Part shown: one piece after another, positions 21,027-50,747 of the stretch
Layout: the number at the start of each line of letters is the position of its first letter
Position numbering within the stretch: the stretch's first letter is position 1
DNA from: Eledone cirrhosa
Lineage: Eukaryota
NCBI GenBank assembly: GCA_964016885.1
Contig: OZ024744.1
Span: 123,504,001 to 123,568,000, forward strand
Reading direction: 5' to 3'
Length of the DNA stretch: 64,000 nucleotides
Notes under the pieces: generated by a model
The model's input: only the letters and a program-made list of their open reading frames with translations
Told to the model about the DNA's origin: nothing
Databases searched by the model: none
Position numbers and translations under genes: made by a program

Positions 21027-21146
21027 CTAGATGGTAGGGGGTGGGGGTGATAGTGGTGGTGGTGGTGACATTATCGAAAGTGATATTGGTTAATAGAGGT
21101 ATGCGAGAGTGTGTGTTTTCGTGTGCACGAGTATAAGTGGGTCTGT

Positions 21147-24100
21147 CACTCTGTCGACAGAGGTAGACGTGTATTAACGAGCTCTGTGTTTTACATTGGT
21201 TTTACCTTGTAAAGAGTGAGATTTGGGATTTATTTTTCTATTGTGATATAATTTAACCCATCGTTATGGCCTGCAGACGTTGGGGTTATTATTATTTCCG
21301 CTCCTTTTTGGGGTGAAAGTTTTCTTCTTACAATTTTGTGAACTCAGCTTGTAGTAATGGACGGCATTAATACAAGTGATGGTCCCACACTCCCCAAAGA
21401 AAAAATATCTTCGAGGAAAAATGAAAGCACAAAGTGCCCAGCTTCCCCCTTCCCTTAACGAAAAACATTAATAAGGAACAACAGACAACAACCGAAAAGA
21501 CAAAAATTGGAAATAATACCAGCAACGGAAAAATTATCGATACCAATACGAACACCAAAGTGAACAGCGACAACAACAACAATGACAAGAAAAACAACGA
21601 CAACAAAATTTCCTTTGCGGAAACTGTAAAAAAAAACCAACGCAAAGCAAAAGTTGGAAGAAGCAAAAAGGTATGTGACTTTCGAACCCGATGGTTCATT
21701 CAGCATTAATTCCCCAGAAGAAATAAAAAGAGAAATTGCCACGAGCACGGTGGTGTTCAGGACAATCTCGAATGCTACAAAAAAACCAGTACAACTGTCT
21801 CAGAGTGAGATAGAGCTGGTTTTAAGGAACCAAATGGAAAGCATTTTGTTCATTCAAAAAGGAAAACTCTTCGGTAGCATCTCGGTTCTTATGAAGGATC
21901 AAGAAACGGCGCAAAAACATTCTATTGCGCCCATTGTATCCACCCACTTCACCTTTTCCCCATCTTAGATGGGAAGAGGGTTTTCCAAAATTAAAATTCA
22001 ACTGCATAAGACCCAAAGTAGACAGTTGGTGGCTACTTTGTGGCGTTTTAGACCTTGACCAAGACATTATAATCTCAGGTGGAAAGTCCCCCAGAGAGGT
22101 CTTTAGTGGGACCAGCGTAGAACTTCTGGTGCAAATGAGCCTGGAAAGGATAGCGAAGATCCCACAGAGAATTCATTTAGATGGAGGGACCTACATAAAT
22201 ATTTCAGTTGAGGGTAGGCGACCCGCGTGTTACCACTGCGCAAGCAGAGGTCACTTGAGGGCTGCATGCCCTCAACTGATAAAAAAGAAACCATTATTAC
22301 AAACGTGGATTGGCAGTATCGGTAGAGGGTCGGACGTCATGCTTTCCAGCATAGTTACGTCTCTTTACAATCTGAGTTCAAATGCCGCCGAGGTTGACTT
22401 TGCCTTTCATCCATACGGGGTCGATAAAATAAAGTACCAGTAATACACTGGGATAATTTCTGGCCTTGTGCCTTAAGTAGAAATAATTATTACAAACACC
22501 ACCAACACCACCACAACCACCACAACAACAACATCCCAAGAAATCAACCCAAAATACGATCCCACCCAGCCCCTCCCCTCAGAACACAAATACAAAAACA
22601 CACGCAGTGCAAACACAACCTGGCAATATACCCCTCCTCTCCAATACGGAAGAGGAGCTCATATCCTCGGAAGACGAGGAGGCTCCCTTCCAAAAAGTCA
22701 AAAGAAAAAATGTACACACACCACACAAACAAAAATAACCCACCTGACAACACAACACATACAACAAAACGCAAGCACACCCAAGAACAACAAACAAAAA
22801 CAATCACAACAACACAAAAACTCTACACATACATAAACAAAAACAATAAAAACTTAGTAGACAAAATAAACAATATCCCTTGGTGAAGGCGAAGCTTTTA
22901 GGCTGGTCACCGTTTACGCCCCTTTTGGGGCAATGCGGTCGGACTTCTTCCATCGTCTGGAGACTTTTCTAGGGATGTGCCGCTCCTTGATTAGAGTAGT
23001 TTCAATAGGAGTTAGTAAGGAGTTAGCCTCAGATAGAAATAGGAAGGAAAAGGAGTTGGTAGTTAATGTTGAAGAGGCAATTAGAAGCGGCAACGTGGCC
23101 AGAGTGCAAGCGTCGAAAACGGCCTTGAGCCAGTTCTTCGCCGCGAAACACGAAGGCTGCGTTGTCCGAAACAAAATACGTGCTCTGGGAAACGAGGGGA
23201 CCAAAGCTGTTAGCTGGGCCCGCGTGATACAAGCCAAAAGTGGGATTAGATCCATTATCCGCTCTTTGCGAGACCAGGATGGACGGGTGATCCTTGAACC
23301 TAAGCAAATGTGCGAGGCCTTTCAAAGGCACTTTTCCCGATTGTTCGGGAGGGACGGGGGCCGGTTGGGGATGTGGTTTTCGGTCCATACCTCGACGGCC
23401 TGCCGCGTCTTTCGGACGAGGAGGCGAGGTCCTGCGACAGGCCGATCTCATAGGGGACGTGCTAAACCTATGCGGCAAACGCATATCTCCAGGCCTCGAT
23501 GGTCTGCCCTACGAACTATATATAATATGCCGGACTTGTTCCCCGATCTCCTCGAGGCGGTCTACTGCAACTGGCAACAGAACGGGAGAATTCCCTGTTC
23601 TGTGACCAAGGGCGTAGTCTCGTTAGTGAGGAAGGACGAGAACAAGGGGGATGACATTAGTAATTTTAGGCCCATAACTCTGCTGAACCCAGAGTTAAAG
23701 ATTTTGGCCAAGGTGTTAGCGAAGAGGCTGGCGCTTGTCGTGGGGGGCCTGGTGGGAGATGCGCAGACATGCACTATCCCGTCCAGGTCCATCCACGACA
23801 ACCTCCACCTCATGCGATACATCATAGAGAGGGTTGGGAACAAACCCGGCTTTGGTGGGACCCTGATCAATTTAGATCAGTCTAAAGCTTTCGATAGGGT
23901 GGACCATGGTTACCTGGATGCGGTGCTAGCGGCGGCTGGTTTCGGACCCGTTTTCAGGGGCTGGATCACTGCCATGCATAACAGCCGCATCTGCTCTAGA
24001 GTCAAGGTGAACGGCTACCTCTCGGAGCCGTTCTAAATCACCCGTTCCATCCGACAAGGATGCCCTCTCTGCTCCCTTCTGTAAATATTGGCTCTCGAGC

Positions 24101-25784
24101 CACTACTGCGGAAGTTGGAGTTGTTGCAGGGCATCCCTTTGGAACCGGGATTGCTCAAAGAAGTGTCAGCCTACGCCGATGACGTAACAGTAATGGTGTC
24201 GACCACCTCGGAATTCGGGGCAATCGGCACCTTACTGGAGGAGTACGAAAGATTGACAGGGGCTAAGCTGAACCGGGACAAGTCAGTCGCTTTGCAACTC
24301 GGCGAGTGGAAGGGCAAACCGATGTCGTCCGACGGTATCGTCGGAAGGTTGACGGAGGGCCCGATGAAGTTGCTTGGGGTCTGGTTCGGACCGGACCTCC
24401 AGGTGGGGAAAAACTGGGGTGAGGTTACCAATAGGGTGTTTGCACTGACCCGGAGTGGGGCGAGTGCAAACTATCCCTGAAAGGTCGGGCGGAGGTGGCG
24501 AACGCTTACATAGCGTCCGTCAACTATTACCGCTTGACTGTCGTGCCTTGCCGAGTGAGATCCTCACCAAAATGGAGCGCGCTCTCTTCTAATTCCTTTG
24601 GAAGAAGAGGGCTCCTCTGGTGAGGAGATCCATCTGCTGTCAACACCCTTTGAAAGGAGGGCTGGGGATGCCGTGGCTAAAAATGCGTAAACACGCATTG
24701 AGGCTACGACACCTTCAGGTATTCCTCACCGGTCAACCGGTGTGGGCCCCGTTTGTGAGGCGAGCCTTTCCGAGGCTCATCTCGCTCACCGCCGAGCTGC
24801 AGTCCTGGGTGAAGCAAAGACCGAGAAAACTGGGCGACTGGCACACCGAGTGTGCCCAGGCGCTCACGGGCAAGCGGACCCGGCTATCGGTGGAGACTCC
24901 ACCTCCTCATTCTATAGAGGGCTAGTGGTTAGCAAGAGCAACGACGCCCTCGGAGAAACCGTAGGCATGGAGGAGGACGAACAGGCCAGCCTCTTCGGCA
25001 GGACTTTCGGCACGGGACCTATGGACAACTTCCAGAAGTCCTTGGCCTGGCAGTGTTACCGAGGGGCTCTGCCCGTTCGGGATAAGCTCTACAGACACGG
25101 GCGCCCGGGTAGGGACCCCTCGAAAAAGATCTGTCCCAGTGTACCAATGCGTGCGCGACGAGGAAACCGTCGCGCACGCATTGATACACTGCCCCGGCGT
25201 TGCCGATCTGTGGGGCTATGTAGAACAACTGCTGTCACGGGTGGGACCAATCAGGTTGACCACCGAGTCCATTGTAACGATCAAGCCACCTCCCCCCTTC
25301 TAAAATGAACGAGAGGCGGTCTTCTTCTGTGTAATAGCCATGGTAAAAGAGGTTGTATGGTGGACGCGTCTAAAAGGGCTGAGGTCGGACACCTTTCTTT
25401 CCGGCCAACAACTAGTCCTTTTCTTCCGATACCATTTCGGAAGAAGGATCAGGATGGAGAGAGAGGTGCTCCACTCCAGCCAGTTTTATGAAGGTGGGTG
25501 AAAGTTGCGAGAATGGCCCGTGTGAATGGGCCTTCTCTCTACCTCAGCCTGTAGGTGGAAAAGGATGAAGGAAGAAGGCAGCACCCTCTCTTTGTGCTCC
25601 CGTGAAGAGTCGCACATTTTTTTTCGGGGGTGCGTGTGACCCCAAAACGATCCCTCACTATTGAGGACCTTTTTGTTATAATTTTATTTGTTATTACATT
25701 TTTTTTACTCGATTTCTATGTAACCCCCCCCCCCCCCATGTATGTGTCCCTTTCTTTTGTGCCCTCGTGGCAAATAAACAAAAA
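21147..25784 (+). mobile_element. Tx1/L1-clade LINE copy 1 (subfamily A), with internal deletions of the ORF1 end and endonuclease, plus a SINE insertion
   Basis: ORF1 CX2CX4HX4C knuckle (CYHCASRGHLRAAC); RT motifs LDQSKAFDRV and AYADDV; AATAAA followed by (TGTC)n. Deletion junctions at ~22881 and ~22989. Confidence 0.93.
22305..22485 (+). mobile_element. tRNA-derived SINE inserted in ORF1
   Basis: A-box-like TGGCAGTATCGG, B-box GAGTTCAAATGCC, 12-bp TSD ATTATTACAAAC; absent from copy 2. Confidence 0.9.
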
Positions 25785-26007
25785 TGTGTCTGTCTGTCAC
25801 TCTGTGGACGGAGGTAGACGTGTATTAACGAGCTCTGTGTTTTACATTGGTTTTACCTTGTAAAAAGTGAGTTTTGGGATTTATTTTTCTCTAGTGATAT
25901 ACTTTAACCCATCGTTATGGCCTGCAGACGTTGGGGCTATTATTATTTTCGCCCCTTTTTGGGGTGAAAGTTTTCTTCTTACAATTTTGTGAACTCAGCT
26001 TGTAGTA

Positions 26008-27677
26008 ATGGACGGCATTAATACAAGTGATGGTCCCACGCTCCCCAAAAATCTTCGAGGAAAAATGAAAGCACAAAGTGCCCAGCTTCGCCCCCCTTCC
26101 TTTAACGAAAAACATTAATAAGGAACAACAGACAACAACCGAAAAGACAAAAATTGGAAATAATACCAGCAACGGAAAAATTATCGATACCAATACGAAC
26201 ACCAAAGTAAACAGCGACAACAACAATGACAAGAAAAATAACGACAACAAAATTTCCTTTGCAGAAACTGTAAAAAAAAACCAACGCAAAGCAAAAGTTG
26301 GAAGAAGCAAAAAGGTATGTGACTTTCGAACCCGATGGTTCATTCAGCATTAATTCCCCAGAAGAAATAAAAAGAGAAATTGCCACGAGCACGGTGGTGT
26401 TCAGGACAATCTCGAATGCTACAAAAAAACCAGTACAACTGTCTCAGAGTGAGATAGAGCTGGATTTAAGGAACCAAATGGAAAGCATTTTGTTCATTCA
26501 AAATGGAAAACTCTTCGGTAGCATCTCGGTTCTTATGAAGGATCAAGAAACGGCGCAAAAACATTCTATTGCGCCCATTGTATCCACCCACTTCACCTTT
26601 TCCCCGTCTTACATGGGAAGAAGGTCTCAAAAAATAAAATTCAATTGCATAAGACCCAAAGTAGACACTTGGTGGCTACTTTGTGGCGTTTTAGACCTTG
26701 ACCAAGACATTATAATCTCAGGTGGAAAGTCCCCCAGAGAGGTCTTTAGTGGGACCAGCGTAGAACTTCTGGTGCAAATGAGCCCGGAAAGGATAGCGAA
26801 GATCCCACAGAGAATTCATTTAGATGGAGGGACCTACATAAATATTTCAGTTGAGGGTAGGCGACCCGCGTGTTACCACTGCGCAAGCAGAGGTCACCTG
26901 AGGACTGCATGCTCTCAACTGATAAAAAAGAAACCATTATTACAAACACCACAAACAATAACACCACCAACACCACCACAACCACCACAACAACAACATC
27001 CCAAGAAATCAACCCAAAATACGATCCCACCCAGCCCCTCCCCTCAGAACACAAATACAAAAACACACGAAGTGCAAACACAACCTGGTAATATACCCCT
27101 CCTCTCCAATACGGAAGAGGAGCTCATATCCTCGGAAGATGAGGGGGCTCCCTTCCAAAAAGTCAAAAGAAAAAAAACCTACACAGACCACACAAACAAA
27201 AAAACCCCACCTGACAACACAACACATACAACAAAACGCAAGCACACTCAAGAACAACAAAAAAACAAACACAACACAAAAACTCTACATATACATAAAC
27301 AAAAACAATAAAAACTTACTAGACAAAATAAACAATAACCCTTCGGTACAAACCGAACGGCCGAATTTTACAATGGCATTGGGTCTCCCTAACCTGAAAA
27401 TGGTGAAGGTCCCACTTGACATTTTTAAAACATTGAAAAGCATTGAAAAACATTGAAAAACTCCCTGAGGACGTGGAACCACCCTGCACCAGGCCACACA
27501 AACGCGTCCTCCTGAAAGGTTTTCCCCGCCCCTCCTCAAACACCCACACAATTCCAAACACCCCAACCCCTCCACACACTAATACCCTCACACCACCACA
27601 AAGCACCGCCCCACCCAACAACCCCTCCACCGCACAGGGAAACTGAACAGCCCGGACCCCGGGACGCAGAGAGGTAA
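26008..27677 (+). pseudogene. ORF1 (nucleic-acid-binding, zinc knuckle, Pro/Thr/Asn-rich), frameshifted
   Basis: 337-aa open part (26298-27311) contains EGRRPACYHCASRGHLRTAC; the C-terminus ...RDAER* is shared with copies 3 and 5. Confidence 0.85.
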
Positions 27678-27700
27678 GTGCCTCTCTCTTTACCACCAAC

Positions 27701-30700
27701 ATAGCTGTGTTAAGAGTAGGTTGTCTAAATGCGCGTGGCCTGGGCTCACCTTGGAAGCAAGCTAAACTTCTAAATGACCTCAGGTCACGATGTATAAATG
27801 TGATGGTTATTTGCGAGGCGCGGATCAGCAGCGTGCGACAGCTAGACCCCACCTTTGATGACTTTGAGATGTACGTATCTCTCTGTCAGCCCGGAAGTGG
27901 GGGTGGGGTTGTCGTCCTGCTGCAAAAACATCTGGGTCTCGCTACACAGACGGTACACTTGGACCCGGAGGGTCGACTAGTGGTTCTGGACCTTGGCAGT
28001 GGTGAAGGCGAAACTTTTAGGCTGGTCGCCGTTTACGCCCCTTTTGGGGAAATGCGGCCGGACTTCTTCCATCGTCTGGAGACTTTTCTAGGGACGTCCC
28101 GCTCCTTGCTTTTAGTGGGGGACTGGAATGGTATCCTAGATGCACGTTGGGACTATGTAGGGGCATGTCCCGATAGAGGGGGTGTAACAACCTCAAGGGG
28201 TTAATCGGCCGATTTGGCCTGGCCAATAGATATCGACTAGATTTTCCGACTGTGCCAACCTGGACTTGGACAAACCATAGCGGTCAATCTAGATCGTACC
28301 TAGAAAGGTTCTTAGTTAGAATTAAGGATAGGGACTTTTTAAGTTGTCCAGAAATGCTCATGGTTGGCTATTCAGACCGCAAGTTAGTGACCTGCATAGT
28401 CTACCTTGATAGAACGCATAGGCAGGGACCCGGTTACTGGAAGCTCAACTTGTCCTTACCGGCAAGTAGAGCTTACAGGGACCGGATTAGGACCTTAGTT
28501 AAGGTGCGGTTGACGGGCGCCATCGTTAACAGCAGGTGGTGGGGCTCTCTGAAAAGAGAGATTAGAGTAGTTTCAATAGGAGTTAGTAAGGAGTTAGCCT
28601 CAGATAGAAATAGGAAGGAAAGGGAGTTGATAGTTAATGTTGAAGAGGCAATTAGAAGCGGCAACGTGGCCAGAGTGCAAGCGTCGAAAACGGCCTTGAG
28701 CCAGTTCTTCGCCGCGAAACACGAAGGCTGCGTTATCCGAAACAAAATACGTGCTCTGGGAAACGAGGGGACCAAAGCTGTTAGCTGGGCCCGCGTGATA
28801 CAAGCCAAAAGTGGGATTAGATCCACTATCCGGTCTTTGCGAGACCAGGATGGACGGGTGATCCTTGAACCTAAGCAAATGTGCGAGGCCTTTCAAAGGC
28901 ACTTTTCCCGATTGTTCGGGAGGGGCGGGGAGCCGGTTGGAGATGTGGTTTTCGGTCCATACCTCGACGGCCTGCCGCGTCTTTCGGACGAGGAGGCGAG
29001 GTCCTGCGACAGGCCGATCTCAGCTGCTGAAATAGGGGACGTGCTAAACCTATGCGGCAAACGCATATCTCCAGGCCTCGATGGTCTGCCCTACGAACTA
29101 TATATTAATATGCCGGACTTGTTCCCCGATCTCCTCGAGGCGGTCTACTGCAACTGGCAACAGAACGGGAGAATTCCCTGTTCTGTGACCAAGGGCGTAG
29201 TCTCGCTAGTGAGGAAGGACGAGAACAAGGGGGATGACATTAGTAATTTTAGGACCATAACTCTGCTAAACGCAGAGTTAAAGATTTTGGCCAAGGTGTT
29301 AGCGAAGAGGCTGGCGCTTGTCGTGGGGGGCCTGGTGGGAGATGCGCAGACATGCACTATCCCGTCCAGGTACATTCACGACAACCTCCACCTCATGCGA
29401 TACATCATGGAGAGGATTGGGAACGAACCCGGCTTTGGTGGGGCCCTGATAAATTTAGATCAGTCTAAAGCTTTCGATAGGGTGGACCATGGTTACCTGG
29501 ATGCGGTGCTAGTGGCGGCTGGTTTCGGACCCGTTTTCAGGGGCTGGATCACTGCCATACATAACAGACGCATCTGCTCTAGAGTCAAGGTGAACGGCTA
29601 CCTCTCGGAGCCGTTCGAAATCACTCGCTCCATCCGAGAGGGGTGCCCTTTCTCCTCCCTTCTGTAAATATTGGCTCTCGAGCCACTACTGCGGAAGTTG
29701 GAGTTGTTGCAGGGCATCCCTTTGGAACCGGGATTGCTCAAAGCAGTGTCAGCCTATGCCGATGACGTAACAGTAATGATGTTGACCACCGTGGATATCG
29801 GGGCAATCGGCACCTTACTGGAGGAGTACGAAATGTTGACAGGGGCTAAGCTGAACCGGGACAAGTCAGTCGCTTTGCAACTCGGCGAGTGGAGGGGCAA
29901 ACCGATGTCGTCCGACGGTATCGTCGGAAGGTGGACGGAGGGCCCGATGAAGTTGCTTGGGGTCTGGTTCAGACCGGACCTCCAGGTGGAGAAAAACTGG
30001 GGTGAGGTGACGAATAGGGTGTTTGCACTGACCCAGAAGTGGGCCGAGTGCAAACTATCCCTGAAAGGTCGGGCGGAGGTGGCGAACGCTTACATAGCGT
30101 CCGTCATCTATTACCGCTTGACTGTCGTGCCTTGCCCGGGTGAGATCCTCGCCAAAATGGAGCGCGCTCTCTTTCACTTCCTTTGGAAGAAGAGGTCTCC
30201 TCTGGTGAGGAGATCCATCTGCTGTCAACACCCTTTGAAAGGAGGGCTGGGGATGCCGTGGCTAAAAATGCGTAAACACGCATTGAGGCTACGGCACCTC
30301 CAGGTATTCATCACCGCTCAACCGGTTTGTGAGGCGAGCCTTCCCGAGGCTCGTCTCGCTCACCGAGCTGCAGTCCTGGGTGAAGCAAAGACCGAGAAAA
30401 CTGGGCGACTGGCACACCGATTGTGCCCAGGCGCTCACGGCTCTCTGGCAGGCGGACCCGGCTATCGGTGGAGACTCCACCTCCTCATTCTATAGAGGGC
30501 TGGTGGTTAGCAGGTGCGACGACGCCCCCGGAGAAACCGTAGGCATGGAGGAGGACGAACTGGCCAGCCTATTCGGTAGGACTTTCGGCACGGGACCTAT
30601 GGACAACTTCCAGAAGTCCTTGGCCTGGCAGTGCTACCGAGGGGCTCTGCCCGTTCGGGATAAGCTCTACAGACACGGGCGCCCGGGTAGGGACCCCTCG

Positions 30701-31133
30701 AAAAAGATCTGTCCCAGTGTACCAATGCGTGCGCGACGAGGAAACCGTCGCGCACGCATTGATACACTGCCCCGGCGTTGCCGATCTGTGGGGCTATGTA
30801 GAACAACTGCTGTCACGGGTGGGACCAATCAGGTTGACCACCGAGTCCATTGTAACGATCAAGCCACCTCCCCCCTTCTAAAATGAACGAGAGGCGGTCT
30901 TCTTCTGTGTAATAGCCATGGTAAAAGAGGTTGTATGGTGGACGCGTCTAAAAGGGCTGAGGTCGGACACCTTTCTTTCCGGCCAACAACTAGTCCTTTT
31001 CTTCCGATACCATTTCGGAAGAAGGATCAGGATGGAGAGAGAGGTGCTCCACCCCAGCCAGTTTTATGAAAGGTGGGTGAAAGTTGCGAGAATGGCCCGT
31101 GTGAATGGGCCTTCTCTCTACCTCAGCCTGTAG
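27701..31133 (+). pseudogene. ORF2 (AP endonuclease-reverse transcriptase), disrupted
   Basis: CLNARGL, GDWN, SDR/HKLV, SPGLDGLPYE, KAFDRV and YADD motifs; several stops and frameshifts. Confidence 0.93.
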
Positions 31134-31375
31134 GTGGAAAAGGATGAAGGAAGAAGGCAGCACCCTCTCTTTGTGTTCCCGTGGAGAAGGGTCGTACATT
31201 TTTTTTTCGGAGGTGTGTGTGACTCCAAAACGATCCCTCCCTATTGAGGACCTTTTTGTTATAATTTTATTTGTTATTACAATTTTTTACTCGATTTCTA
31301 TGTACCCCCCACCCCTCATGTATGTGTCCCTTTCTTTTGTGCCCTCGTGACAAATAAACAGAATTTGTCTGTCTC

Positions 31376-31410
<35 letters not shown>

Positions 31411-31424
31411 GGCTGGCTGGCTGG

Positions 31425-32228
<804 letters not shown>

Positions 32229-32279
32229 TGACACTAAATTATTTGCCACGTAAATAGGTACCATAAATGTATACCCGAC

Positions 32280-32379
32280 TGTCTATCTATCTATCTAGCT
32301 GTATATCTCTCTGACTGTCTAGCTGTATATCAGACTGTCTGTTTATCTATCTATCTAGCTGTATATCTCTCACTGTCTG

Positions 32380-32450
<71 letters not shown>
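32280..32450. repeat. (TATC)n/(TGTC)n microsatellite with TAGCTGTATATC interruptions
   Basis: Read directly from the sequence. Confidence 0.95.
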
Positions 32451-32451
<1 letters not shown>

Positions 32452-35400
32452 ACCCCCCCCCCCCAGACACCCACTCAACGACAAACACCCCAACCCCACA
32501 ACACACCGATGCCCCTTCACTTCCACAAACCACCACCCCACCCAACAACCCATCCCCAACCAGCATGGAAATTGAGCGGCCCGTTTCCCGGGACGCAGAG
32601 AGGTAAGTGCCTTTTCTCTTTACCACCAACATGGCTGTGCTAAGAGTAGGGTGTCTAAATGCGCGTGGCCTGGGCTCGTCTTGGAAGAAGCAATGCTTCT
32701 AAATGACCTCAGGTCACAATCTATAAATGTGATGGTTATCTGCGAGGCCCGGATCAGCAGCATGCGACAGCTAGCCCCCACCTTTGACGACTTTGAGATG
32801 CACGCATCTCTCTGTCAGCCCGGAGGTGGGGGTGGGGTTGTCGTTCTGCTGCAAAAACATATGGGCCTTGCAACACAGATAGTTCACTTGGACCCAGGGG
32901 GTCGACTGGTGGTGCTGGACCTTGGCAGTGGTGAAGGTAGAGCCTTTAGGCTGATAGCCGCATATGCCCCTTTTGGGACAGAGCGGCCCGACTTTTTCCA
33001 GCGTCTGGAGTCTTTTCTAGGGACGTCCCGTTCCCTGCTTTTAGTGGGGGATTGGAATGGTATCCTGGATGCACGTTGGGACTATGCAGGGGCATGTCCC
33101 GATAGAGAGGGGTGCAACAGCCTCAAGGGGTTACTCGGCCGATTTGACCTGGCCGATAGATTTCGACTAGATTTTCCGACGGTGCCAACCTAGTCTTGGT
33201 CAAATCGCAGCGGATCATCTAGATCGTACCTAGATAGATTTTTAGTTAGAAATAAGGACAGGGACTTTTTAAGCTGTCCAGAAATGCTCATGGTTGGCTA
33301 TTCAGACCACAAGTTGGTGACCTGCATGGTCAACCTTGATAGAACGCATAGACAGGGCCCCGGTTACTGGAAGCTCAACTTGTCCTTGCCGGCAAGTAGA
33401 GCCTACAGGAATCGGATTAGTACGTTAGTTAAGGAACGGTTGACTGGAGCGATCGTCAACAGCAGGTGGTGGGTATCTCTAAAGAGAGAGATTAGAGTAG
33501 TCTCGATTGAATTTAGTAAGGTTCTAGCTGCGGATAGGAATAGGAAGGAAAGGGAGCTAATAGATAGAGTAGAAGAGGCAATTAGAAGCGGCGACGTGGC
33601 CAGAGTGCTAGCGTCGAGAACGGCTTTGAGCCAGTTTTTCGACGCGAAGCACGAAGGTTGCGTTGTCCGAAGTAAAATACGTGCTCTAGGAAACGAGGGG
33701 ACCAAAGCTGTTAGCTGGGCCCGCGTGACAGAGGCCAACAGTGGAACTAAATCCACCATCCGGTCTTTGCGAGACCTGGATGGACGGGCGATTCTTGAGC
33801 CTAAGCAGATGTGTGAGGCCTTTCAAAGGCACTTTGCCCGACTGTTCGGGAGGGGCGGGGAGCCGGTTGGGAACGTGGACTTCGGTCCATACCTCGACGG
33901 CCTGCCGCGCCTCTCGGACAGGGAGGCGAAGTCCTGCGAGGAGCCGATTTCGGCCGCTGAGATAGAGGACGTGCTGAGCCAATGCGGCAAACGCAAATCC
34001 CCGGGTCTCGATGGTCTTCCTTACGAATTATATCTAGCTATGCCGGACTTGTTCCCCGATCTCCTCGAGGCGGTCTACTGCAACTGGCAACAGAACGGGA
34101 GAATTCCCTGTACTGTGACCAAGGGCGTAGTCACGCTAGTGAGGAAGGACGAGAACAAGGGTGACGAAATAAGTAACTTCAGGCCCATAACTCTGCTAAA
34201 TACAGAGTTACAGATTTTGGCCAAGGTGCTAGCAAAGAGGTTGGCGCTTGTCGTGGGCAACCTGGTGGGAGATGCGCAGACATGCGCTATCCCGTCCAGG
34301 TCCATCCATGACAACCTCCACCTCATGCGATACATCATAGAGAGGGTTGGGAACGAACCCGGCTTTGGTGGGGCTCTGATCAACTTGGATCAATCTAAGG
34401 CGTTCGATAGGGTCGACCATGGTTACCTGGATGCGGTGCTAGCGGCGGCAGGCTTCGGACCCGTTTTCAGGGGCTGGATCACTGCTATGCACAGCAGCCG
34501 CATCTGCTCTAGGGTCAAGGTGAACGGCTACCTCTCGGAGCCGTTCAAAATCGCGCGGTCCATCCGACAAGGGTGCCCTCTCTCCTCCCTTCTGTATGTG
34601 TTGACTCTCGAGCCACTACTGCGGAAGTTGGAGTTGTTGCAGGGCATCCCTTTGGAACCGGGATTGCGGAAAGCGGTGTCAGCCTACGCCGATGATGTGA
34701 CAGTAATGGTGTCGACGGCCTCCGAAATCGAGGCGGTCGGCACCTTACTGGAGGAGTACGAAAAGTTCACAGGGGCTAAGCTGAACCGGGACAAGTCGAT
34801 CGGTTTGCAACTCGGCACGTGGAGGGGCAGACCGATACCCTCCGATGGCGTCGTCGGACGCTGGACGGAGGGCCCGGTGAAGTTGCTCGGGGTCTGGTTC
34901 GGACCGGACCTCCAGGTGGAGAAAAACTGGGCGGAGGTTACGAACAGGGTGTTTGCACTGACCCAGAAGTGGGCCAGTTGCAAACTATCCCTGAAAGGTC
35001 GGGCGGAGGTGGCGAACACTTATATAGCGTCCGTCATCTACTACCGCCTGACCGTAGTGCCCTGCCCAAGGGAAACCCTCACCAAGATGGAGCGCGCGCT
35101 CTTCCAATTCCTTTGGAAGAGGCGGGCTCCTATGGTGAGGAGATCCATCTGCTGTCAACACCCTTCGAAAGGAGGGCTGGGGATGCCGTGGCTAATGATG
35201 CGTAAACACGCATTAAGGCTACGGCACCTCTACGTATTCCTCACCGGACAACCGGTGTGGGCCTCGTTTGTGAGACGAACCTTTTCCAGACTCGTCTCAC
35301 TCACCGAGCTGCAATCCTGGGTCAAGCAAAGACCGAGAAAACTGGGCGCCTGGCACACTGAGTGTGCCCAGGCGCTCACCGCCCTCTGGCAGGCGGACCC

Positions 35401-36330
35401 GGTTATCAGTGGAGACTCCACCGCAACATTCTATAGAGGGCTGGTACGCAGCAGGTGCGACGACGCCCTCGGAGAAGCCCTAGACATGGAGGAGGACGAA
35501 CTGGCCAGCCTGTTCGGTAGGACATTCAGCCCGGGACCTATGGACAACTTCCAGAAGTCCCTGGCCTGGCAGTGCTACCGAGGGGCTTTACCCGTTCGAG
35601 AAAGGCTCTACAGACACGGGCGCCCGGGTAGGGACCCCGCCAAAAAGATCTGTCCCAGATGCGTGTGCGACGAGGAAACCGTTGCACACGCATTGGTACA
35701 CTGCTCGGGCGTAGCCGATCTGTGGGGCTATGTCGAACAACTGCTGTCAAGGGTGGGACCGATCCGGTTGACCACCAAGTCTATTGTAATGATCAAGCCG
35801 CCTCCCCCCTTCAAAGATGAAGCAGAGGCGGTGTTTCTGTGCGTAATAGCCATGGCGAAAGAGGTTGTATGGTGGACGCGTCTGAAAGGACTGAGGTCAG
35901 GCACCTTTCTCTCTGGCCAACAACTGGTCCTTTTCTTCCGATATCATTTCGGAAGAAGGATCAGGATGGAGAGAGAGGTGCTGCACCCCAGTCGTTTTTA
36001 TGAAAGGTGGGTGAAAGTGGCGAGAATGGCCCGTGTGAATGGGCCTTCTCTTTACATAAGCCTGTAGGTGGAAAAGAGGAAGGAACGAGGGAGCACCCCC
36101 TCTCTGTGCTCCTGAGGAAAAGGGTTGCACACTTTTTTCGGGGGTGTGTGCGACCCCCCAAGGCGCCTCCTCTCTATTGAGGATTTTGTTATAAATTTTA
36201 TTTTTGTTATATCTTATTTTATTTTTATATTTTGTTATTGCCTCCTCCTTATTGAGGACGCCTTTTTGTGTAAACTCCCCCCTTTGTACTTGTCCCACTT
36301 TTGATGCCCTAGTGGCAAATAAAAGAAACA
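32451..36330 (+). mobile_element. Tx1/L1-clade LINE copy 3, 5'-truncated within ORF1
   Basis: ORF1 tail ...SRDAER*, near-intact ORF2, AATAAA; flanked by (TATC)n on both sides. Confidence 0.95.
32631..36067 (+). pseudogene. ORF2 EN-RT-CCHC; 927-aa open segment at 33284-36067
   Basis: One early frameshift and a TGG>TAG at 33191. Motifs SDHKLV, RQGCPLS, YADD and CPRC...HALVHC. Confidence 0.95.
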
Positions 36331-36340
36331 TATCTATCTA

Positions 36341-36711
36341 TTCAAATACCACTTTGGAAGAAGAATCAGGATGGAGAGAGAGGTGCTGTACCCCAGCAAG
36401 TTTTATGAAAGGTGGGTGAAAGTGGCGAGAATGGCCCGAGTGAATGGGCCTTCTCTCTATATCAGCCTGTAGATTGAGGAAAAGGAGGAGGAGAGGAAAG
36501 GAGTACAAGCTCTTCGTACTCCTGGAGATGAGGGTTGCACATTTTTTTCGGGGGTATGTGTTACCCATATAAACTGTCTCCCTCTATTGGGGAAAATCGA
36601 CTAACTTTTAAATTCCATCTGTGATAACATTTTACACGTTTTTATTGTATGTAAACTTCCCCCTTTGTATTTGTCCCCTTCTTTTGTGCCCCTGTGGCTA
36701 ATAAAGAAATA
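36341..36711 (+). mobile_element. Tx1 3' fragment (copy 4)
   Basis: ORF2 C-terminus plus 3' UTR, nearly identical to 43503-43873; TATC repeats on both sides. Confidence 0.92.
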
Positions 36712-36821
<110 letters not shown>

Positions 36822-37046
36822 GCTGTCATCTGTTCTACAGCGTAGATGTAATTCACTTCGCGCAGAAGTTTTGTTCCAATTTATTGCGGAAATTTTGTAA
36901 GTTCAATTTTAATTTTGATACTATTGTGTAGCTTGACCCCCCGTCTGAACTGTCAGACGGTGGGTCAGCTCATCTTCGCCCCTCCCAGGGGTGAAAAACC
37001 TGTTTTTAAAAATTTTGTGGCATACAATTTCAATCGTCTGACAGAA

Positions 37047-38953
37047 ATGTTAAACGAAGCTAACGAAAATAGTGGTGGGGGGACAGCGGTAAGAGTTGTA
37101 AGCTCGCACGCTTTAGTCCCCCCTTCCTTCCCAACTAACGTCATAGAGAAGGAAAGAAAAAATAAAATAAAAACAGACGGATGTGCGGAGAAAAATGACG
37201 AAAACACAAATCTGGACATTGATTCCAACAACAAAAAAAAAAATTGAAAAATTGCATGACAATATTAATACCACAAACAAAAACACAACAAACACAAAAA
37301 TAACATTTGAAAACAGCATCATAACAGAAAGCAAAGCAGACGACAAAGTCAACACCAATAATATTTCATTTGCACAAACAACAAAGAAATATTTGACATA
37401 TATACCTGAAAATATTTCAGATGTGGCACAAAGAATTAAAAACGCCAAACAATACATAACTCAAGGGGAAAATGGTATTTTATCGGTAAAAATGCCTCAA
37501 GAACTCACCAAAGACATTGAAAGTCGGAGGGTCGTTTTCCGCACCATCAACAACATTTCTAAAAAACCTCAACAACCAACACAAACAGAAATCAAAGCAG
37601 TACTTACAGAAGTACTTAATGAAACCACTTTCATAAGAAAAGACAGACTGTATGGAAGCCTAGCGATTATTATGAAGAACGAATCGGCGGCAAAAAAATA
37701 TGCTTTGTCGCCGATTCGTTCGACAAATTTTACCTTTTATCCATCTTATATGGGTAAAAGAACTCAGCGCATATGGCTGGATGCGATGATGCCAGATGTG
37801 GACTACTGCTGGCTCATAGCTGGCTTCATCGATCCAGCAAATGACAACGTGATTTCCATTGGGAAAACCACAGGCAATGCGTTCAGTGGAACAGGTATAG
37901 AACTTGTAGTGCAAATGAAGCCTGAACGCATTGCCCAAATACCTGACAGAATCCTATTAGAGGGCCACGGGTATATAAACATTAACGTGGAGGGGAGAAG
38001 GCCGTCCTGTCATATCTGTGCAGGCAGAGGGCACCTGAAGGCGGCTTGTCCCCCAACTCAACAAGAAGAAAACCCTGCTACCAACACCAGCTCCACCACC
38101 ACCACAACATATAAACAAACAACAAAACTCAGTCCCACCCAACTCGTCCCTCAATAAAATAACACCACCACCACAACACAAACAGTCACAACACATTACC
38201 CAAAAACAAAAAACAGTCCCACCCAACCCCTCACTCAATAAAACAACACAACCACCGCAGCCACAACACACAACACAGTCTAACATAGTGACATCCATCT
38301 ACCCCACAAAGAAAACCAACACGGAAACACTACCAGCAAACATACCTCTTCCCTCCAACACTGAAGATAACCCAACGAATTCGGAGGAAGAAACGGAGTC
38401 CTTCAGACAGATTAAAAGAAAAAAAAGAAAACATGTGCAAAACACACAAGGCCAAACAACCCCTACCCAAATGTCAACACAATCCAACAAAACACAAAAC
38501 ACCCCTCCAGCAACAAACAAAACCAAGCCTGTCCCTCCCCTCTTCGAAACACTCACACCATCCGAAAAAAAGACATTACACTATACTTACATCAACAGAA
38601 ACAATAATAAATTAAATGAACTCATAAACAATAACCCTTCGGTACAAACCGAAGGTGTAAACTTTGTTTCTTCAGAAAACTACCCACATTTAAAATTAAT
38701 AAAGATCCCAATGAACCTCTACCAAAAACTAAAAAAGGATTTTAAGGAGGACGTAGGACCACCCTCTGTCAAACCCATAAACCGCGTCCTACTAAAAAGC
38801 TTTCCCCCTCCCCTTCCCCTCCCCAACACAACTCCAAACACCCCAACCCCACAACACACTGACGACCCCACACCACCACAAGACACCCCTTCACCCAACA
38901 CCCCCGACCCCATGGAAGTCGTGCGACCCGAACCCCGGGAAGCAGAAAGGTAG
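37047..38953 (+). pseudogene. ORF1 of copy 5, disrupted
   Basis: Homologous to copy 2 ORF1 (VVFRTI, FYPSYMGKR, INVEGRRP-CCHC, NNNPSVQTE, ...EAER*). Confidence 0.87.
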
Positions 38954-38986
38954 GTCTCTACACTCTCCTTTGGCTTTGCCGCCCAC

Positions 38987-41900
38987 ATGGATGTGTTAAG
39001 AGTAGGATGTTTGAATGCACGTGGCCTGGGCTCAACTTGGAAGCAAGCAAAGCTTCTAAATGACCTCAGGTCACGTGGTATAAATGTAATGGTTATCTGT
39101 GAGACTCGGATCAGCGTCGTGCGGCAGCTGGCCCCTACCTTCGATAACTTTGAGGTGCATGCATCTCTCTGTCAACATGGAGGTGGGGGTGGGGTTGTCG
39201 TACTGCTGGAAAAACACCTGGGTCTCGCCGTACAGGTTGTTCACTCGGACCCGGAGGGTCGTTTGTTGGTGCTAGACGTTGACAGTAGTGAAGGTGCGGC
39301 CTTGAGACTGGTCGCCATCTACTCCCCTTTCGGAGCTGAACGACCCGACTTCTTCCAGCGTCTGGAGACTTTTCTGGGAACGTCGCGTTCCCTGCTTCTA
39401 GCGGGGGACTGGAATGACATCCTAGATGCACGTTGGGACTATGCAGGAGCATGTCCTAATAGAGGGGGGTGTAACAGCCTCAAGGGGTTACTCGACCGTT
39501 TTAACTTGGTCGATAGATATCGACTAGATTTTCCAACTGTGCCAACCTGGACTTGGACGAACCACAGTGGTCAATCTAGATCGTACTTAGATAGATTCTT
39601 AGTTAGAAGTAAGGATAGGGACATATTAAGCTGTCCAGAAATGCTCACGGTTGGCTATACGGATCACAAATTAGTGACCTGCGTAGTCAATCTTGAGAAA
39701 ACACATAAACAGGGTCCCGGTTACTGGAAACTTAATTTGTCTTTACCGGCAAAAGAGACTTACAGAAACCGGATTAGCAGATTAGTTAAGGAGAGTTTAA
39801 CGGGTGCAATCGTCAACAATCGATGGTAGGCATCTCTCAAAAGAGAGATTAGAACAGAATCAATAAGTTATAGCAAGATGTTAGCTGCCGGTAGGAATAG
39901 AAACGAGAAAGAATTAACAGGTAAATTAGAAGAGGCAATCAAGAGTGAAGATGTGGCCAGAGTACTGGCATCGAGGACGGCCTTGAGCCAGTTTTTCGAT
40001 GCAAAGCACGAAGGCTGCGTCATTCGAAGTAAAATACGTGCTCTAGGTAATGAGGGGGCCAAAGCCATTGGCTGGGCCCGCGTGACAGAAGCTAAGAGTG
40101 GAAATCGATCCACCATCCGGTCTTTGCAAGACGAGGATGGACGGGTAATCCGGGAGCCTAAGCAGATGTGCGAGGCCTTTAAAAGGCACTTTGCCCGATT
40201 ATTCGAGGGAGGCGAGGGTCCGGGCAGGGACGTGGATTTCAGTCCATACCTCGACGGCCTGCCGCGTCTCTCGAGCGAAGAGGCAGAGTCCTGCGAGGGA
40301 CCAATCTCGGCTGATGAGATCGGGGATGCGCTGAGCCAATGCAGCAGACGCAAATCTCCAGGTCTCGATGGTATACCTTACGAACTTTATTTAGCAATGC
40401 CGGTCTTCTTCTCCGAACTCCTCGAAGCGGTCTACTGCAATTGGCAGCAGAACGGGAGAATTCCTTGTTCTGTAGCCAAGGGCGTAGTCTCGCTGGTGAG
40501 GAAGGACGAGAACAAGGGGGATAGTATAAATCATTTTCGGCCCATAACCCTGCTAAACACAGAGTTAAAGATTTTGGCCAAGGTGTTAGCAAAGAGGTTG
40601 GCGCTTGTCGTGGGTGGCCTGCTGGGAGATGCGCAGACATGTGCTATCCTATCCAGGTCCATTCACGATAACCTCCACCTCATGCGATACATCATAGAGA
40701 GGGTTGGCAACAAACCCGACTTCGGTGGGGCCCTGATCAACTTGGATCAGTCTAAGGCATTCGATAGGGTCGACCATGGTTACCTGGATGCGTTGCTAGC
40801 GGCGGCTGGGTTTGGTCCTGTTTTCAGAGGCTGGATCACTGCCTTACATAGCAACCACATCTGTTCTAGGATCAAGGTGAACGGCTACCTTTCGAAGCCA
40901 TTCGAAATCACACGATCCATTCGACAGGGGTGCCCTCTCTCCTCCCTTCTGTACGTATTGACTCTCGAGCCTTTACTGCGGAAGTTGGAGTTGTTGCAGG
41001 GTATCCCCCTGGAACCAGGATTGAGCAAAGTGGTGTCGGCCTACGCCGATGACGTAACAGTAATGGTATCGACCGACTCGGAGATCGAGGCGATCGGTAC
41101 CTTACTGGAGGATTACGAAAGGTTGTCAGGAGCGAAACTGAACCGGGAAAAATCCATCGGAACGTGGAGAGGCAGACCGATGCCTCCCGACGGTGTCGTC
41201 GGACACTGGACGGAGGGCCCAGTGAAGTTGCTTGGGGTCTGGTTTGGACCGGACCTCCAGGTGGAAAAGAACTGGGACGAGGTTACGAACAAGGTGTTTG
41301 CACTAACCCAGAAATGGGCCAAGTGTAAGGTGTCCCTAAAAGGTCGGGCGGAGGTGGCGAACATTTACATAGCGTCCGTCACTTACTACCGCCTGACTGT
41401 CGTACCTTGCCCTAAGGAAACACTCACCACCATGGAACGCATGCTCTTCCAATTTCTTTGGAAGAAGCGCCCTCCTATGGTGAGAAGATCCATCTGCTGC
41501 CAACAACCATCGAAAGGAGGGCTGGGGATGTCGTGGTTGATGATGCGTAGGCACGCATTAAGGCTACGGCACCTAAAGGTATTCCTCACTGGTCAACCGG
41601 TGTGGGCTCCGTTCGTGAAACGAGCCTTTCCGAGACTCGTCTCGCTCACTGAGCTGCAGTCCTGGGTCAAGCAAAGATCCGGAAAACTGGGAGACTGGCA
41701 CACTGAGTGTGCCCAGGCGCTCAGGGCTCTCTGGCAAGCGGGCCCGGTCATCGGTGGAGAATCCACCTCATCATTCTATAGAGGGCTGGTGGCTAGCAGG
41801 GGCGATGACACCCTTGGAGAGTCTCTGGACATGGAAGAGGACGAACTGGCCAGCCTGTTCGGTAGGACTTTCGGCCCAGGACCAATGGACAACTTCCAGA

Positions 41901-42402
41901 AGTCACTAGCCTGGCAGTGCTACCGGGGGGCTCTATCCGTTCGAGAGAGGCTCTACAGACACGGGTGCCCGGGCAGGGATCCCTCGAAAAAGATTTGCCC
42001 TAGATGCGTGCGTCACGAAGAAACCATTGCGCACGCATTGGTGCAATGTCCGGGCGTGGCTGATCTGTGGGGCTACGCCGAACGACTGCTGTCGCCGATT
42101 CGATTGACCGCCGAGTCCGTGATGACAATCAAGCCGCCTCCCCTCTTCACAAAGGAAGCAAAGGCGGTTTTTCTGTGCGTAATAGCCATGTTGAAAGAGG
42201 TTGTTTGGTGGACACGATTGAAAGGTCTGAGGTCAGGCAACTTCCTCTCTGGCCATAGTCTGGTCTACTTCTTCCGATATCACTTCGGAAGAAGGATAAG
42301 AATGGAGAGAGAGGTGCTTGGCCACGGGCAGTTTTATGAAGGTGGGTGATAGTGGCGAGAATGGCTCGTGTAAATGGGCCTTCTCTGTATACCATCCTGT
42401 AG
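38987..42402 (+). pseudogene. ORF2 of copy 5 (EN-RT), with one internal stop and a late frameshift
   Basis: 280-aa and 823-aa segments in the same frame, separated by a stop (TGG>TAG at 39827). Confidence 0.94.
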
Positions 42403-42652
42403 GTAAAGAAGTGAAGGAGAGGGGAGCACCTTCTCCATGTGCTCCCCGGGCAAAGGATTGCACACTTTTTCGGGGGTGTATGCAACCCCCATCACGTCCC
42501 CTCCCTTTTGAGGTTGTTTTCGATTATTTTCATTTTATACCCTTTTTACTCGATTTTATGTAAACCCCCCCTTTGTATTTGTCCCTTCTTTTTATGCCTT
42601 TATGGTAAATAAAGAAATCTATCTATCTATCTATCTAGCTGTATATCTGTCT

Positions 42653-43873
42653 AATGGAGCGCGCGCTCTTCCAATTCCTTTGGAAGAGGCGGGCTCCTTT
42701 GGTGAGAAGATCCATCTGCTGCCAACACCCTTCTAACGGAGGGCTGGGGATGCCGTGGCTGACGATGCGCAAACACGCGCTCAGGCTGCGGCATCTCTAC
42801 GTATTCTTCACCGGACAACCGGTGTGGGCCCCGTTCGTGAGGCGAACCTTCCCACGACTCGTCTCGCTGACCGAGCTGCAGCCCTGGGTCAAGCAAAGAC
42901 CGAGAAAAATGGGCGACTGGCACATCGAATGTGCTCAGGCTCTCACAGCCCTCTAGCAGGCGGACCCGGCGATCAGTGGAGACTCCACTTCGTCATTCTA
43001 TAGAGGGTTGATCCGCAGCAAATGCGACGACGCGCTCGGTGAAACTCTAGGCGTAGAGGAAGATGAACTGGCCAGTCTGTTCGGTAGGACCTTACGCCCG
43101 GGACCGATGGACAACTTCCAAAAGTCCCTGGCCTGGCAGTGCTACCGAGGAGCTCTACCAGTTCGAGACAAGCTCTACAGACATGGGCGCCCGGGCAGGG
43201 ACCCTGCAAAAAAGATCTGTCCGAGGTGCGTGCGTAACGAAGAAACTGTCGCGCACGCATTCATACACTGCCCGGGCGTCACCGACCTGTGGGGCTATGT
43301 AGAACGACTATTGTCGCGGGTGGGACCAATCCGGTTGACCACCGAGTCCATTGTCATGATCAAACCGCCACCCTCCTTCAAAAACGAAGGAGAGGCGGTT
43401 TTCCTTTGTGTGATAGCTATGGCGAAAGAGGTTGTATGGTGGACAAGGTTGAAAGGGCTGAGGTCAGACACCTTTCTCTCCGGCCAACAACTGATTCTTT
43501 TTTTCAAATACCACTTTGGAAGAAGAATCAGGATGGAGAGAGAGGTGCTGTACCCCAGCAAGTTTTATGAAAGGTGGGTGAAAGTGGCGAGAATGGCCCG
43601 AGTGAATGGGCCTTCTCTCTATATCAGCCTGTAGGTTGAGGAAAAGGAGGAGGAGAGGAAAGGAGTAGAAACACTTCGTACTCCTGGAGATGAGGGTTGC
43701 ACATTTTTTCGGGGGTATGTGTTACCCATATGAAATGTCTCCCCCTATTGGGGAAAATCGACTAATTTTTTAAATTGCATTTGTGATAACATTTTACACG
43801 TCTTTATTGTATGTAAACTTCCCCCTTTGTATTTGTCCCCTTCTTTTGTGCCCCTGTGGCTAATAAAGAAACA
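42653..43873 (+). mobile_element. Tx1 5'-truncated copy 6
   Basis: ORF2 C-terminal third plus 3' UTR; TATC repeats on both sides. Confidence 0.93.
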
Positions 43874-44106
43874 TATCTATCTATCTATACATGCCTATCT
43901 ATCTATACCTACCTATCGATCTGTCAATCGATCTACAGGTGATAGATTATTAATTATTTCAACATATTTCGAGGTAACAATTATAATTCTTATAATTACT
44001 AGTTAGTTTCACATAATTTAACGAATTATCTATTTTCCTTCTATTTTCTTTTGAATCAAAACATTCTACAATTACTAAAAGTAATACTACTACTAATAAT
44101 AATAAT

Positions 44107-49786: not shown

Positions 49787-50041
49787 AACTGATTCTTTTT
49801 TTCAAATACCACTTTGGAAGAAGAATCAGGATGGAGAGAGAGGTACTGTACCCCAGCAAGTTTTATGAAAGGTGGGTGAAAGTGGCGAGAATGGCCCGAG
49901 TGAATGGGCCTTCTCTCTATATCAGCCTGTAGGTTGAGGAAAAGGAGGAGGAGAGAAAGGAGTACAAACTCTTCGTACTCCTGGAGATGAGGGCTGCACA
50001 TTTTTTCGGGGGTATGTGTTACCCATATGAACTGTCTCCCC

Positions 50042-50045
<4 letters not shown>
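49787..50045 (+). mobile_element. Tx1 fragment (copy 7) embedded in (TATC)n
   Basis: Near-identical to the copy 6 3' end; breaks off at CCTAT into (CTAT)n. Confidence 0.9.
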
Positions 50046-50123
<78 letters not shown>

Positions 50124-50124
<1 letters not shown>

Positions 50125-50685
50125 ACTGCTGTCGCGTATGGGACAAATACAGTTGACTGCCGAGTCCATAGTAAGGATCAAACCGCCAGACTCTTTCAAA
50201 AACGAAAGAGAGGCGGTTTTCCTCTGTACGGTGGCTATGGTGAAAGAAGTTATATGGTGGACGAGGTTGAGAGGACTGAGGACAGATGCCTTTCTCTCCG
50301 GACAACAATTGATTCCCTTCTTTAAGTATCACTTTAGAAGGAGAATCAGGGTGGAGAGAGAGGCACTGCACCCCAGTAAATTTACTGAAAGGTGGGTGAA
50401 TGAAGCGAAAATGGCCCGAGTGATTGGGCCTTCTCTGTTTATAAGCCTGTAGGTTGAGGAAGAGAGCAAAAGGAAGAAAGGAGCACTTGCACAACACGCT
50501 CCTTGAGTTGAGGGTTGTTCTATCGACGGGGTATTAAACAACCCATTTGTGGCGCCTCCCCCCTATTGGGGATTTCGATTGTTGAAATTGTTTGTTTTTA
50601 TATTTTTTACACGACTGTATGTAAAATCCCCGGCATGTCTTTGTATTGTCCCCTTTCTTGTTGCGCCCTTGTGGCTAATAAAGAA

Positions 50686-50686
<1 letters not shown>
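50124..50686 (+). mobile_element. Tx1 5'-truncated copy 8 (another subfamily) embedded in (TATC)n
   Basis: ...EVIWWTRLRG...VIGPSLFISL*, AATAAA; (TATC)n on both sides. Confidence 0.92.

Positions 50687-50747
<61 letters not shown>

Follow-up and report, generated by a model that had tools for sequence, protein, structure and literature searches.

What does a consensus 5′ splice site do at the very end of the first open reading frame (ORF1) of a retrotransposon, when the stop codon of the second (ORF2) resembles a 3′ splice site? The question arises from a stretch of 64,000 nucleotides (nt) of Eledone cirrhosa (GenBank assembly GCA_964016885.1, contig OZ024744.1, positions 123,504,001 to 123,568,000 of the forward strand; hereafter the window), where a cluster of copies of a long interspersed nuclear element (LINE) of the L1/Tx1 type extends over about 21.1–50.7 kb. 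An earlier note on this DNA had proposed that the whole of ORF2 could be removed as a spliceosomal intron, leaving a subgenomic mRNA that encodes only the ORF1 protein (ORF1p). The comparisons described here suggest that such a message, joined from the donor to an AG at or just past the ORF2 stop, is on balance probable, that its splicing is likely gated by an RNA helix, and that its logic would be that of copia elements. Of the proposal, the selected donor stood and removal of ORF2 is the best reading, but the message is predicted from the sites and the search for spliced genomic copies was negative. The ORF2-removing architecture is real at the level of sequence and unproven at the level of RNA.

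The donor at the end of ORF1

The three window copies with an ORF1/ORF2 junction (A, B and D) carry donors as the earlier note described them, GAG/GTAAGT at 27673/4 and 32602/3 and AAG/GTAGGT at 38949/50 (the slash marks the exon–intron boundary), each overlapping the ORF1 stop as AGG TAA or AGG TAG. All three copies are broken by stops or frameshifts. Thirteen subfamily representatives (A, B, B2, C, D, E, F, G, G2a, G2b, G3, H and J) were taken from stretches of the 3.0 Gb genome that was searched; among nine subfamilies the nucleotide identity of ORF2 is 0.69–0.97. When all GT and AG dinucleotides of a copy were ranked with a crude scoring matrix, the junction donor was the top-scoring GT among 251–333 in 12 of the 13 subfamilies and second in the remaining one. 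GTAAGT, GTAGGT or GTGAGT occupies 108 of 117 junctions, a count in which the D loci were chosen by likeness to the junction. Donor positions −1G, +1G, +2T, +5G and +6T are invariant, as compared with 53 of 225 four-fold degenerate ORF2 sites that are identical across nine subfamilies. Site scoring and comparison with synonymous sites had been suggested as checks, and the donor stands out in both.

The donor is also independent of the stop codon, because it is present in all three phases of ORF1: A, B, B2, D, E and H have it in phase 2, while C, G, G2b, G3 and J have it in phase 1 and F and G2a in phase 0. It is retained where the ORF1 stop has shifted 2–12 codons away (C, G and J in phase 1; F and G2a in phase 0), and in F and G2a the reading frame continues 8–12 codons beyond it. 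In a relative called K (41% amino acid identity), 40 of 41 junctions have AAG/GTAAGT one base past the ORF1 stop; the remaining one, L251, belongs to another family, is without a strong junction donor and has TAA as its ORF2 stop. Among distant L1/Tx1-like controls from metagenomes (22–33% identical), 0 of 37 loci had a score of at least 5 near the stop of the upstream reading frame (the closest reached 4.7), in a scan that mis-called some starts and did not reach two of the stops; their ORF2 stop is TAG in 14 of 42.

The simplest explanation would be chance inheritance from a single ancestor, without function. The octopod subfamilies share descent, and the retention of TAG discussed below is neutral-like, both of which would agree with it. 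However, four-fold sites differ between subfamilies by up to 0.49, H and J have ORF1 ends unrelated to those of the other subfamilies, and K has the same perfect donor. For the donor this explanation is largely refuted, and as a general account it is next to negligible. Its conservation indicates that the donor is clearly selected and not a product of chance.

Two further observations concern these sites and relatives. A second donor-like sequence, AAG/GTGGGT at 42338–42346, lies in conserved ERWV codons at a distance of 61 nt from the downstream ORF2 stop, and recurs at the corresponding position of other copies; it is shared by K and may reflect protein constraint. The K sequences come from a bacterial metagenome-assembled genome record (CAXXMW01; L251–L293) with numerous LINE copies in tandem, spread over at least 17 contigs, and this LINE-bearing DNA is probably eukaryotic host DNA in the bin.

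Candidate acceptors and predicted splice products

A donor in this position could in principle serve a short intron of 42–59 nt, whose excision would take out the ORF1 stop and fuse the two reading frames. Subfamilies D and H have an AG 13–14 nt into ORF2 in the phase of the donor, which would give an intron of 51–52 nt. The fusion would, however, be out of frame in C, G and J (phase 1) and in F (phase 0), E has no AG there, the intron would measure 41–42 nt in A and B, and in K such an intron is impossible since the donor follows the stop. Fusion is accordingly a very improbable function of the site.

The other candidate partner is the ORF2 stop. Eight 3′ ends in the window, with the G of TAG at 25554, 31133, 36067, 36472, 42402, 43634, 49932 and 50452, are as previously listed, and GT follows TAG in seven of them, the end at 36472 having AT; elsewhere the stop is followed by GC in G and TT in J. 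The terminal AG ranks 1–6 of about 250 in 7 of the 11 subfamilies scored. The view that TAG is the universal ORF2 stop did not survive, as subfamily H has TAA in 20 of 20 copies. Retention of TAG is in any case uninformative alone, because 25 of 53 two-fold purine sites are equally invariant across the nine subfamilies.

Subfamily H bears on the acceptor in another way. Some 170 nt into its 3′ untranslated region (3′UTR) lies a U-rich tract ending in YAG, present in 27 of 27 copies and the best of 259 AG, with a score of 8.2 as against at most 2.8 for 3′UTR AG in the other subfamilies. Its sister J keeps TAG, and at the place of the H acceptor it has GCAC with A-rich sequence upstream in 22 of 23 copies. 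H thus appears to use a 3′UTR acceptor in place of TAG. Relatives that use TAA had been named as a finding that would count against ORF2 removal; H is such a relative in part, but with an acceptor elsewhere. The gain, as reconstructed from these sequences, is one evolutionary event, in the direction that splicing predicts. In K the best of about 252 AG lies 51 nt past the ORF2 stop, whereas the AG of the stop itself ranks 42. A second K donor is situated 14 nt past the ORF2 stop and 36–45 nt before this acceptor, and is kept in all copies (L252:8479-8520). The 3′UTR of L251 contains a strong donor and a strong acceptor about 145 nt apart, and 3′UTR mini-introns or U1 sites are possible in the wider clade. 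Judged from scores and turnover, the acceptor is weaker than the donor but behaves like an acceptor.

Splicing between these sites in copies A, B and D would remove 3460, 3465 and 3453 nt, respectively (27674–31133, 32603–36067 and 38950–42402). The joins had been expected to rebuild the final arginine codon. In copy D the join gives ...REAER followed by a stop, identical to the unspliced ORF1p, while the joins of copies A and B restore the arginine but read on; exact regeneration of ORF1p is limited to D and B2. Over a wider sample, a stop within two codons past the join is found in the donor frame of 8 of 12 subfamilies, as compared with 3 of 24 other frames (Fisher p 0.002, a nominal value that overstates the case since the lineages are related). 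It is the turnover of acceptors in H and K, together with these phase-matched stops, that supports a splice removing ORF2.

Complementarity between the ORF2 ends and a possible switch

The end of ORF1, the donor and the spacer between the reading frames are complementary to the first 35–100 nt past ORF2, and the two strands covary. Cognate duplexes between spacer and 3′UTR start have energies of −20 to −47 kcal/mol. Over 12 subfamilies none of 100,000 permutations reaches the cognate pairing, which for the six deep lineages takes first place among 720; per-copy shuffles gave p values from <0.004 to 0.11. Matched changes include CCAGC-AUG with UAG-GCUGG in G versus CAAC-AUG with UAG-GUUG in C and E, and at donor position +4 a G that pairs with C in D and F and an A that pairs with U in E and H. 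The pairing can reach into the final codons of ORF1. In E, H and J it takes in the entire donor, and in several other subfamilies a part of it. In K a variant helix joins the donor region to the final 70 nt of ORF2, the strongest pairing among 793 windows and one matched by 0 of 500 shuffles. The GA-rich stretch and the bases after TAG, earlier taken for an exonic enhancer, are better read as a helix strand, because their pairing with the spacer covaries.

In minimum-energy folds the helix is present when the fragment is cut at the helix ends. A whole-region fold that displayed it was end-biased and was overturned by folds with long flanks. The 3′UTR also contains local hairpins at 42421–42447 and 36089–36112, with compensated stems (GGAGCAC/GTGCTCC, in C GGAGTAC/GTACTCC) and a second hairpin downstream; these resemble the stem-loops recognized by the reverse transcriptase of stringent LINEs (PMC5135761).

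If the helix acts as a switch, the following steps can be considered. U1 would bind the donor during transcription of the 3.4 kb ORF2. Once the 3′UTR has emerged, it could pair back over the donor and the exon start, by which splicing would be blocked and full-length RNA would remain for synthesis of the ORF2 protein (ORF2p) and retrotransposition. Alternatively, the 3′UTR could fold into its local hairpins, leaving the sites free, and ORF2 would be spliced out. The spliced, ORF1-only mRNA would end at the polyA site of the element itself, beside the full-length RNA, and the ratio of paired to unpaired molecules would set the excess of ORF1p over ORF2p. Spliced RNA would not be retrocopied, because it offers no ORF2p in cis and has lost the spacer strand. 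More generally, a LINE lineage with at least 41% ORF2 identity may carry its reverse transcriptase inside a spliceosomal intron, with a covarying helix of about 35–60 bp between the ORF2 ends as the switch: when paired it would hide the U1 site and give full-length, retrotransposition-competent RNA, when unpaired it would release the ORF1p message, and it would also mark only unspliced RNA as template. This extended version is offered tentatively.

A different role can be considered in which the helix itself is the functional unit, clamping the start of ORF2 beside its stop, either to restrict or couple its translation or to label full-length RNA for ORF2p, the donor being kept mainly as helix sequence and stop context. 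Covariation is the strongest structural signal, the matched pairing of ORF2 start and stop differs in step between G and C/E, and the complete pairing of the donor in E, H and J would also be explained. Yet A, B, B2, C and the G group leave positions +2 or +3 to +4 out of the pairing, and these positions are nevertheless consensus. Pairing would tolerate compensated non-consensus donors, of which there are none in the 13 subfamilies or K, and the donor occurs in three phases and in K outside ORF1. A purely helical function is for these reasons distinctly unlikely.

Several observations weigh against removal of ORF2 by helix-gated splicing. In copies A and B the join would lengthen ORF1p by 73 and 41 residues; A, B and E are without a phase-matched stop, and that of F comes at three codons. 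Retention of TAG fits a neutral-like pattern that is not above chance alone, B2, G2a, G2b and J have a weak terminal AG (ranks 12–36), and the G of TAG can pair in the helix. Donor pairing in E, H and J and the matched +4 position in D and F could conserve part of the donor. The second donor of K is too near its acceptor for a usual intron, so that sites of U1 type may persist without being spliced. Minimum-energy folds with long flanks do not contain the helix (0 pairs in G and D), and imposing it on full-length G takes 12 of 2251 kcal/mol; the predicted helix competes with local hairpins, and the argument for it is covariation, not global energy. Spliced genomic copies, proposed earlier as a test, were found in none of D, A/B, C/E, G or H: there were 0 for D versus 1233 junction candidates, the search for A/B/D spliced joins gave 9 matches versus 7 for the control with none inside an element, and 0 were obtained for C/E, G and H, including 0 of 20 G-like copies sampled. 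In contigs of runs X1, X2, X4 and X5 (kind unknown) no 38949–42403 joint was present in the best 15 of 135 matches to copy D, and in those of X4 and X5 no 4031–7489 joint in the best 15 of 20 matches to G. The missing spliced copies lower the probability of splicing but do not exclude it, because cis preference as described in PMC5860796 predicts few copies of an RNA without ORF2.

Some apparent leads from these searches were discarded. Two G matches to the spliced join are unspliced point variants. Words from the ORF1 end number 803 and ORF2 words 357, a surplus that could have indicated ORF2-less copies; at 20 of 20 sites sampled, however, the sequence runs on into spacer and ORF2, almost always in older subfamilies. 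X4 contigs run unbroken over the G donor (3988–4563) and over TAG (7425–7730). An older subfamily that shares exactly 30 nt accounts for a contig break at 4017, and a break at 7425 fits a join to the AG 61 nt before the stop and equally a C/T variant at 7455. The depth of X4 contigs identical to G is about 195 in the 3′ half of ORF1, 5–21 in ORF2 and 348 at the 3′ end, ORF1 having about 9x the depth just past the donor (L061:2861-4017); contig depth is no valid ranking of gene parts, and the pattern was given no weight.

The missing retrocopies would also be expected if U1 binds the site without splicing and suppresses premature polyadenylation at AATAAA or ATTAAA in the A-rich ORF1 end (or in ORF2), the helix later hiding the site for export. 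One of these signals occurs within 350 nt upstream of the donor in 11 of 15 representative copies, the second K donor past ORF2 is kept in all copies, and in the copia element EVD U1 both splices and blocks premature termination (PMC5580714). Such a role does not predict the 3′UTR acceptor gained in H, the one subfamily without TAG, nor the top-ranking acceptor of K past ORF2, nor the phase-matched stops. We regard this main alternative as unlikely to be the explanation, and a U1-only role and splicing can coexist.

The elements and other features of the window

The elements are, from their domain organization, L1/Tx1-type retrotransposons of the non-LTR kind (LTR, long terminal repeat), with the Tx1 label taken from architecture. 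ORF2 combines an N-terminal apurinic/apyrimidinic (AP) endonuclease, a reverse transcriptase and a C-terminal zinc-binding domain, as expected of this type; PF03372, PF00078 and PF13966 were identified in the intact subfamily G and in window pieces too. Its best relative of solved structure is human L1 ORF2p (E 1.9e-57; R2 1e-22). A separate ORF1 with a CCHC knuckle lies upstream, in G a protein of 627 residues with CX2CX4HX4C. The zf-CCHC match in the window-copy ORF1 is weak (E 0.038), a Pfam search of the G ORF1 gave 0 matches, and the atlas look-alikes are of CCHC/ZCCHC3 type (0.90–0.93, a lead only). The tails of the copies are (TATC)n, (TGTC)n or (ATT)n, and copies sit within one another's tails. 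The closest named homolog is from Argonauta hians (62% identity), and a search of viral contigs returned no relative.

Subfamily G, with an ORF2 of 1139 residues beside its intact ORF1, is young and one of the genome's most active element groups: about 340–360 copies are near full length, at least 40 have an intact ORF2, words at the two ORF2 ends occur in 357 and 338 genomic copies, and genome searches with 40%-identical proteins recovered mostly this subfamily. Its copies are almost all full length, with little 5′ truncation for a LINE, and units of about 5.84 kb form head-to-tail arrays with (ATT)n tails (G000:C1:423362000-423418000). In subfamily F, 20 of 20 copies are without an ATG where ORF2 usually starts; an ATA stands there, in the −1 frame and overlapping the TAG of ORF1 (L051:1704-1745). 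F is nonetheless young (99% identity, 1313 search candidates), and a non-AUG start or a frameshift is possible.

Coordinates of LINE features in the window are collected in Table 1. Outside the cluster, a gypsy-like LTR element at 2200–6080 has protease, RT and integrase-like reading frames and 16-bp repeats in its terminal repeats; a shorter related piece occupies 14300–15720, and both are inserted in a 48-bp satellite that forms long arrays on both strands at 34–21026 and 63334–63937. The regions 52900–56800 and 62129–62930 hold what we take, from sequence motifs, to be pieces of RTE-like LINEs, on both strands, and part of a mariner-like transposase.

Table 1. LINE features in the window, with splice sites and helix strands as predicted (RT, reverse transcriptase)
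Feature	Position	Strand	Basis or remark
A-type copy, ORF1/ORF2 junction deleted; 3′ end TAG/GT at 25554	21143..25790	+	sequence
Copy A, donor GAG/GTAAGT on ORF1 stop (TAA 27675-27677)	27671..27679	+	rank 1/271 GT
Copy A, ORF1/ORF2 spacer, pyrimidine-rich, predicted helix 5′ strand	27674..27700	+	weak in decayed copy, shuffle p 0.11
Copy A, ORF2 (endonuclease, RT, zinc finger), broken, start ATA; candidate acceptor = stop TAG 31131-31133	27701..31133	+	acceptor rank 3/249 AG
Copy B, ORF1 end, donor and spacer, predicted helix 5′ strand	32593..32630	+	pairing analysis
Copy B (5′-truncated), donor GAG/GTAAGT on ORF1 stop (TAA 32604-32606)	32600..32608	+	rank 1/333 GT
Copy B, ORF2, one internal stop, RVT_1 and zf-RVT; candidate acceptor TAG 36065-36067	32631..36067	+	acceptor rank 4/265
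Copy B, 3′UTR start, purine-rich, predicted helix 3′ strand; competing local hairpin possible at 36089-36112	36067..36112	+	pairing analysis
C-type 3′ fragment, short, inside copy B tail; TAG/AT at 36472	36340..36720	+	sequence
Copy D, ORF1, frameshifted, start inferred, end REAER-TAG	37047..38953	+	sequence
Copy D, donor AAG/GTAGGT on ORF1 stop (TAG 38951-38953)	38947..38955	+	same in 32/32 D junctions, loci chosen by likeness to this junction
Copy D, spacer, predicted helix 5′ strand	38950..38986	+	pairing analysis
Copy D, ORF2, broken; candidate acceptor TAG 42400-42402, then G TAA = stop in donor phase	38987..42402	+	subfamily D acceptor rank 3/256 (scored on copy L032)
Copy D, predicted helix 3′ strand; competing local hairpin 42421-42447	42402..42450	+	pairing analysis
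Copy D, tail: AATAAA and (TATC)n	42608..42640	+	sequence
C-type copy, 5′-truncated; TAG/GT at 43634	42654..43890	+	sequence
3′ fragments, C-type (49932) and E-type (50452)	49790..50720	+	sequence

Relation to known systems

HAL1 (half-L1) is an ORF1-only element. The same holds for HeT-A (PMC1636488, where the introns of TART are antisense). In both, as in the ORF2-removing splice favored here, ORF1 is made without ORF2; they are, however, separate DNA elements, whereas no ORF2-less copy was found among those sampled here. In human L1, the splicing reported for SpORF2 (PMC2896524) and SpIREs (PMC5860796) removes 5′UTR or ORF1 sequence and keeps ORF2. The likeness is that splice sites inside an L1-clade RNA alter the protein made. 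The human forms retrotranspose in cis and leave genomic copies, while the predicted octopod splice is the reverse, without copies found, and its sites, unlike the human ones, are kept across subfamilies. The target-preferring LINEs of the Tx1 clade (Kibi, Koshi and crocodilian microsatellite families; PMC4494074) are alike in two reading frames, AP endonuclease and reverse transcriptase, an ORF1 CCHC knuckle, microsatellite tails and clustering; the accessible part of that source describes them without ORF2-bracketing splice sites or a clamp helix. L1-Tx1 families are active in Octopus vulgaris (PMC13282606, whose accessible text mentions neither splicing nor ORF1). In the literature covered (titles and abstract starts, few subscription papers or Repbase reports), no LINE that splices out all of ORF2 and no helix between spacer and 3′UTR were encountered.

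The excess of LINE ORF1p over ORF2p is usually ascribed to poor reinitiation at ORF2. If the favored splice occurs, a selected ORF2-removing intron would be a second solution to this excess, convergent with copia. Thousands of strong donors and acceptors would then be scattered through the genome, and an ORF1-side RNA-seq signal need not mean retrotransposition-competent RNA. Drosophila copia produces a 2-kb spliced gag RNA. In the Arabidopsis Ty1/copia element EVD, a conserved U1 site and a short intron coupled to premature termination give a subgenomic gag mRNA (PMC5580714). The octopod elements share with these a conserved U1-type donor near the end of the structural gene, from which splicing is predicted to give a message for the structural protein only and an excess of structural over catalytic protein. 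The analogy drawn in the earlier note therefore holds for the logic but not for membership, as LTR gag-pol organization and a short intron coupled to early termination belong to copia and EVD alone; the LINE would remove its whole 3.4 kb ORF2, keep its own 3′UTR and polyA site, and place a covarying helix over the sites.

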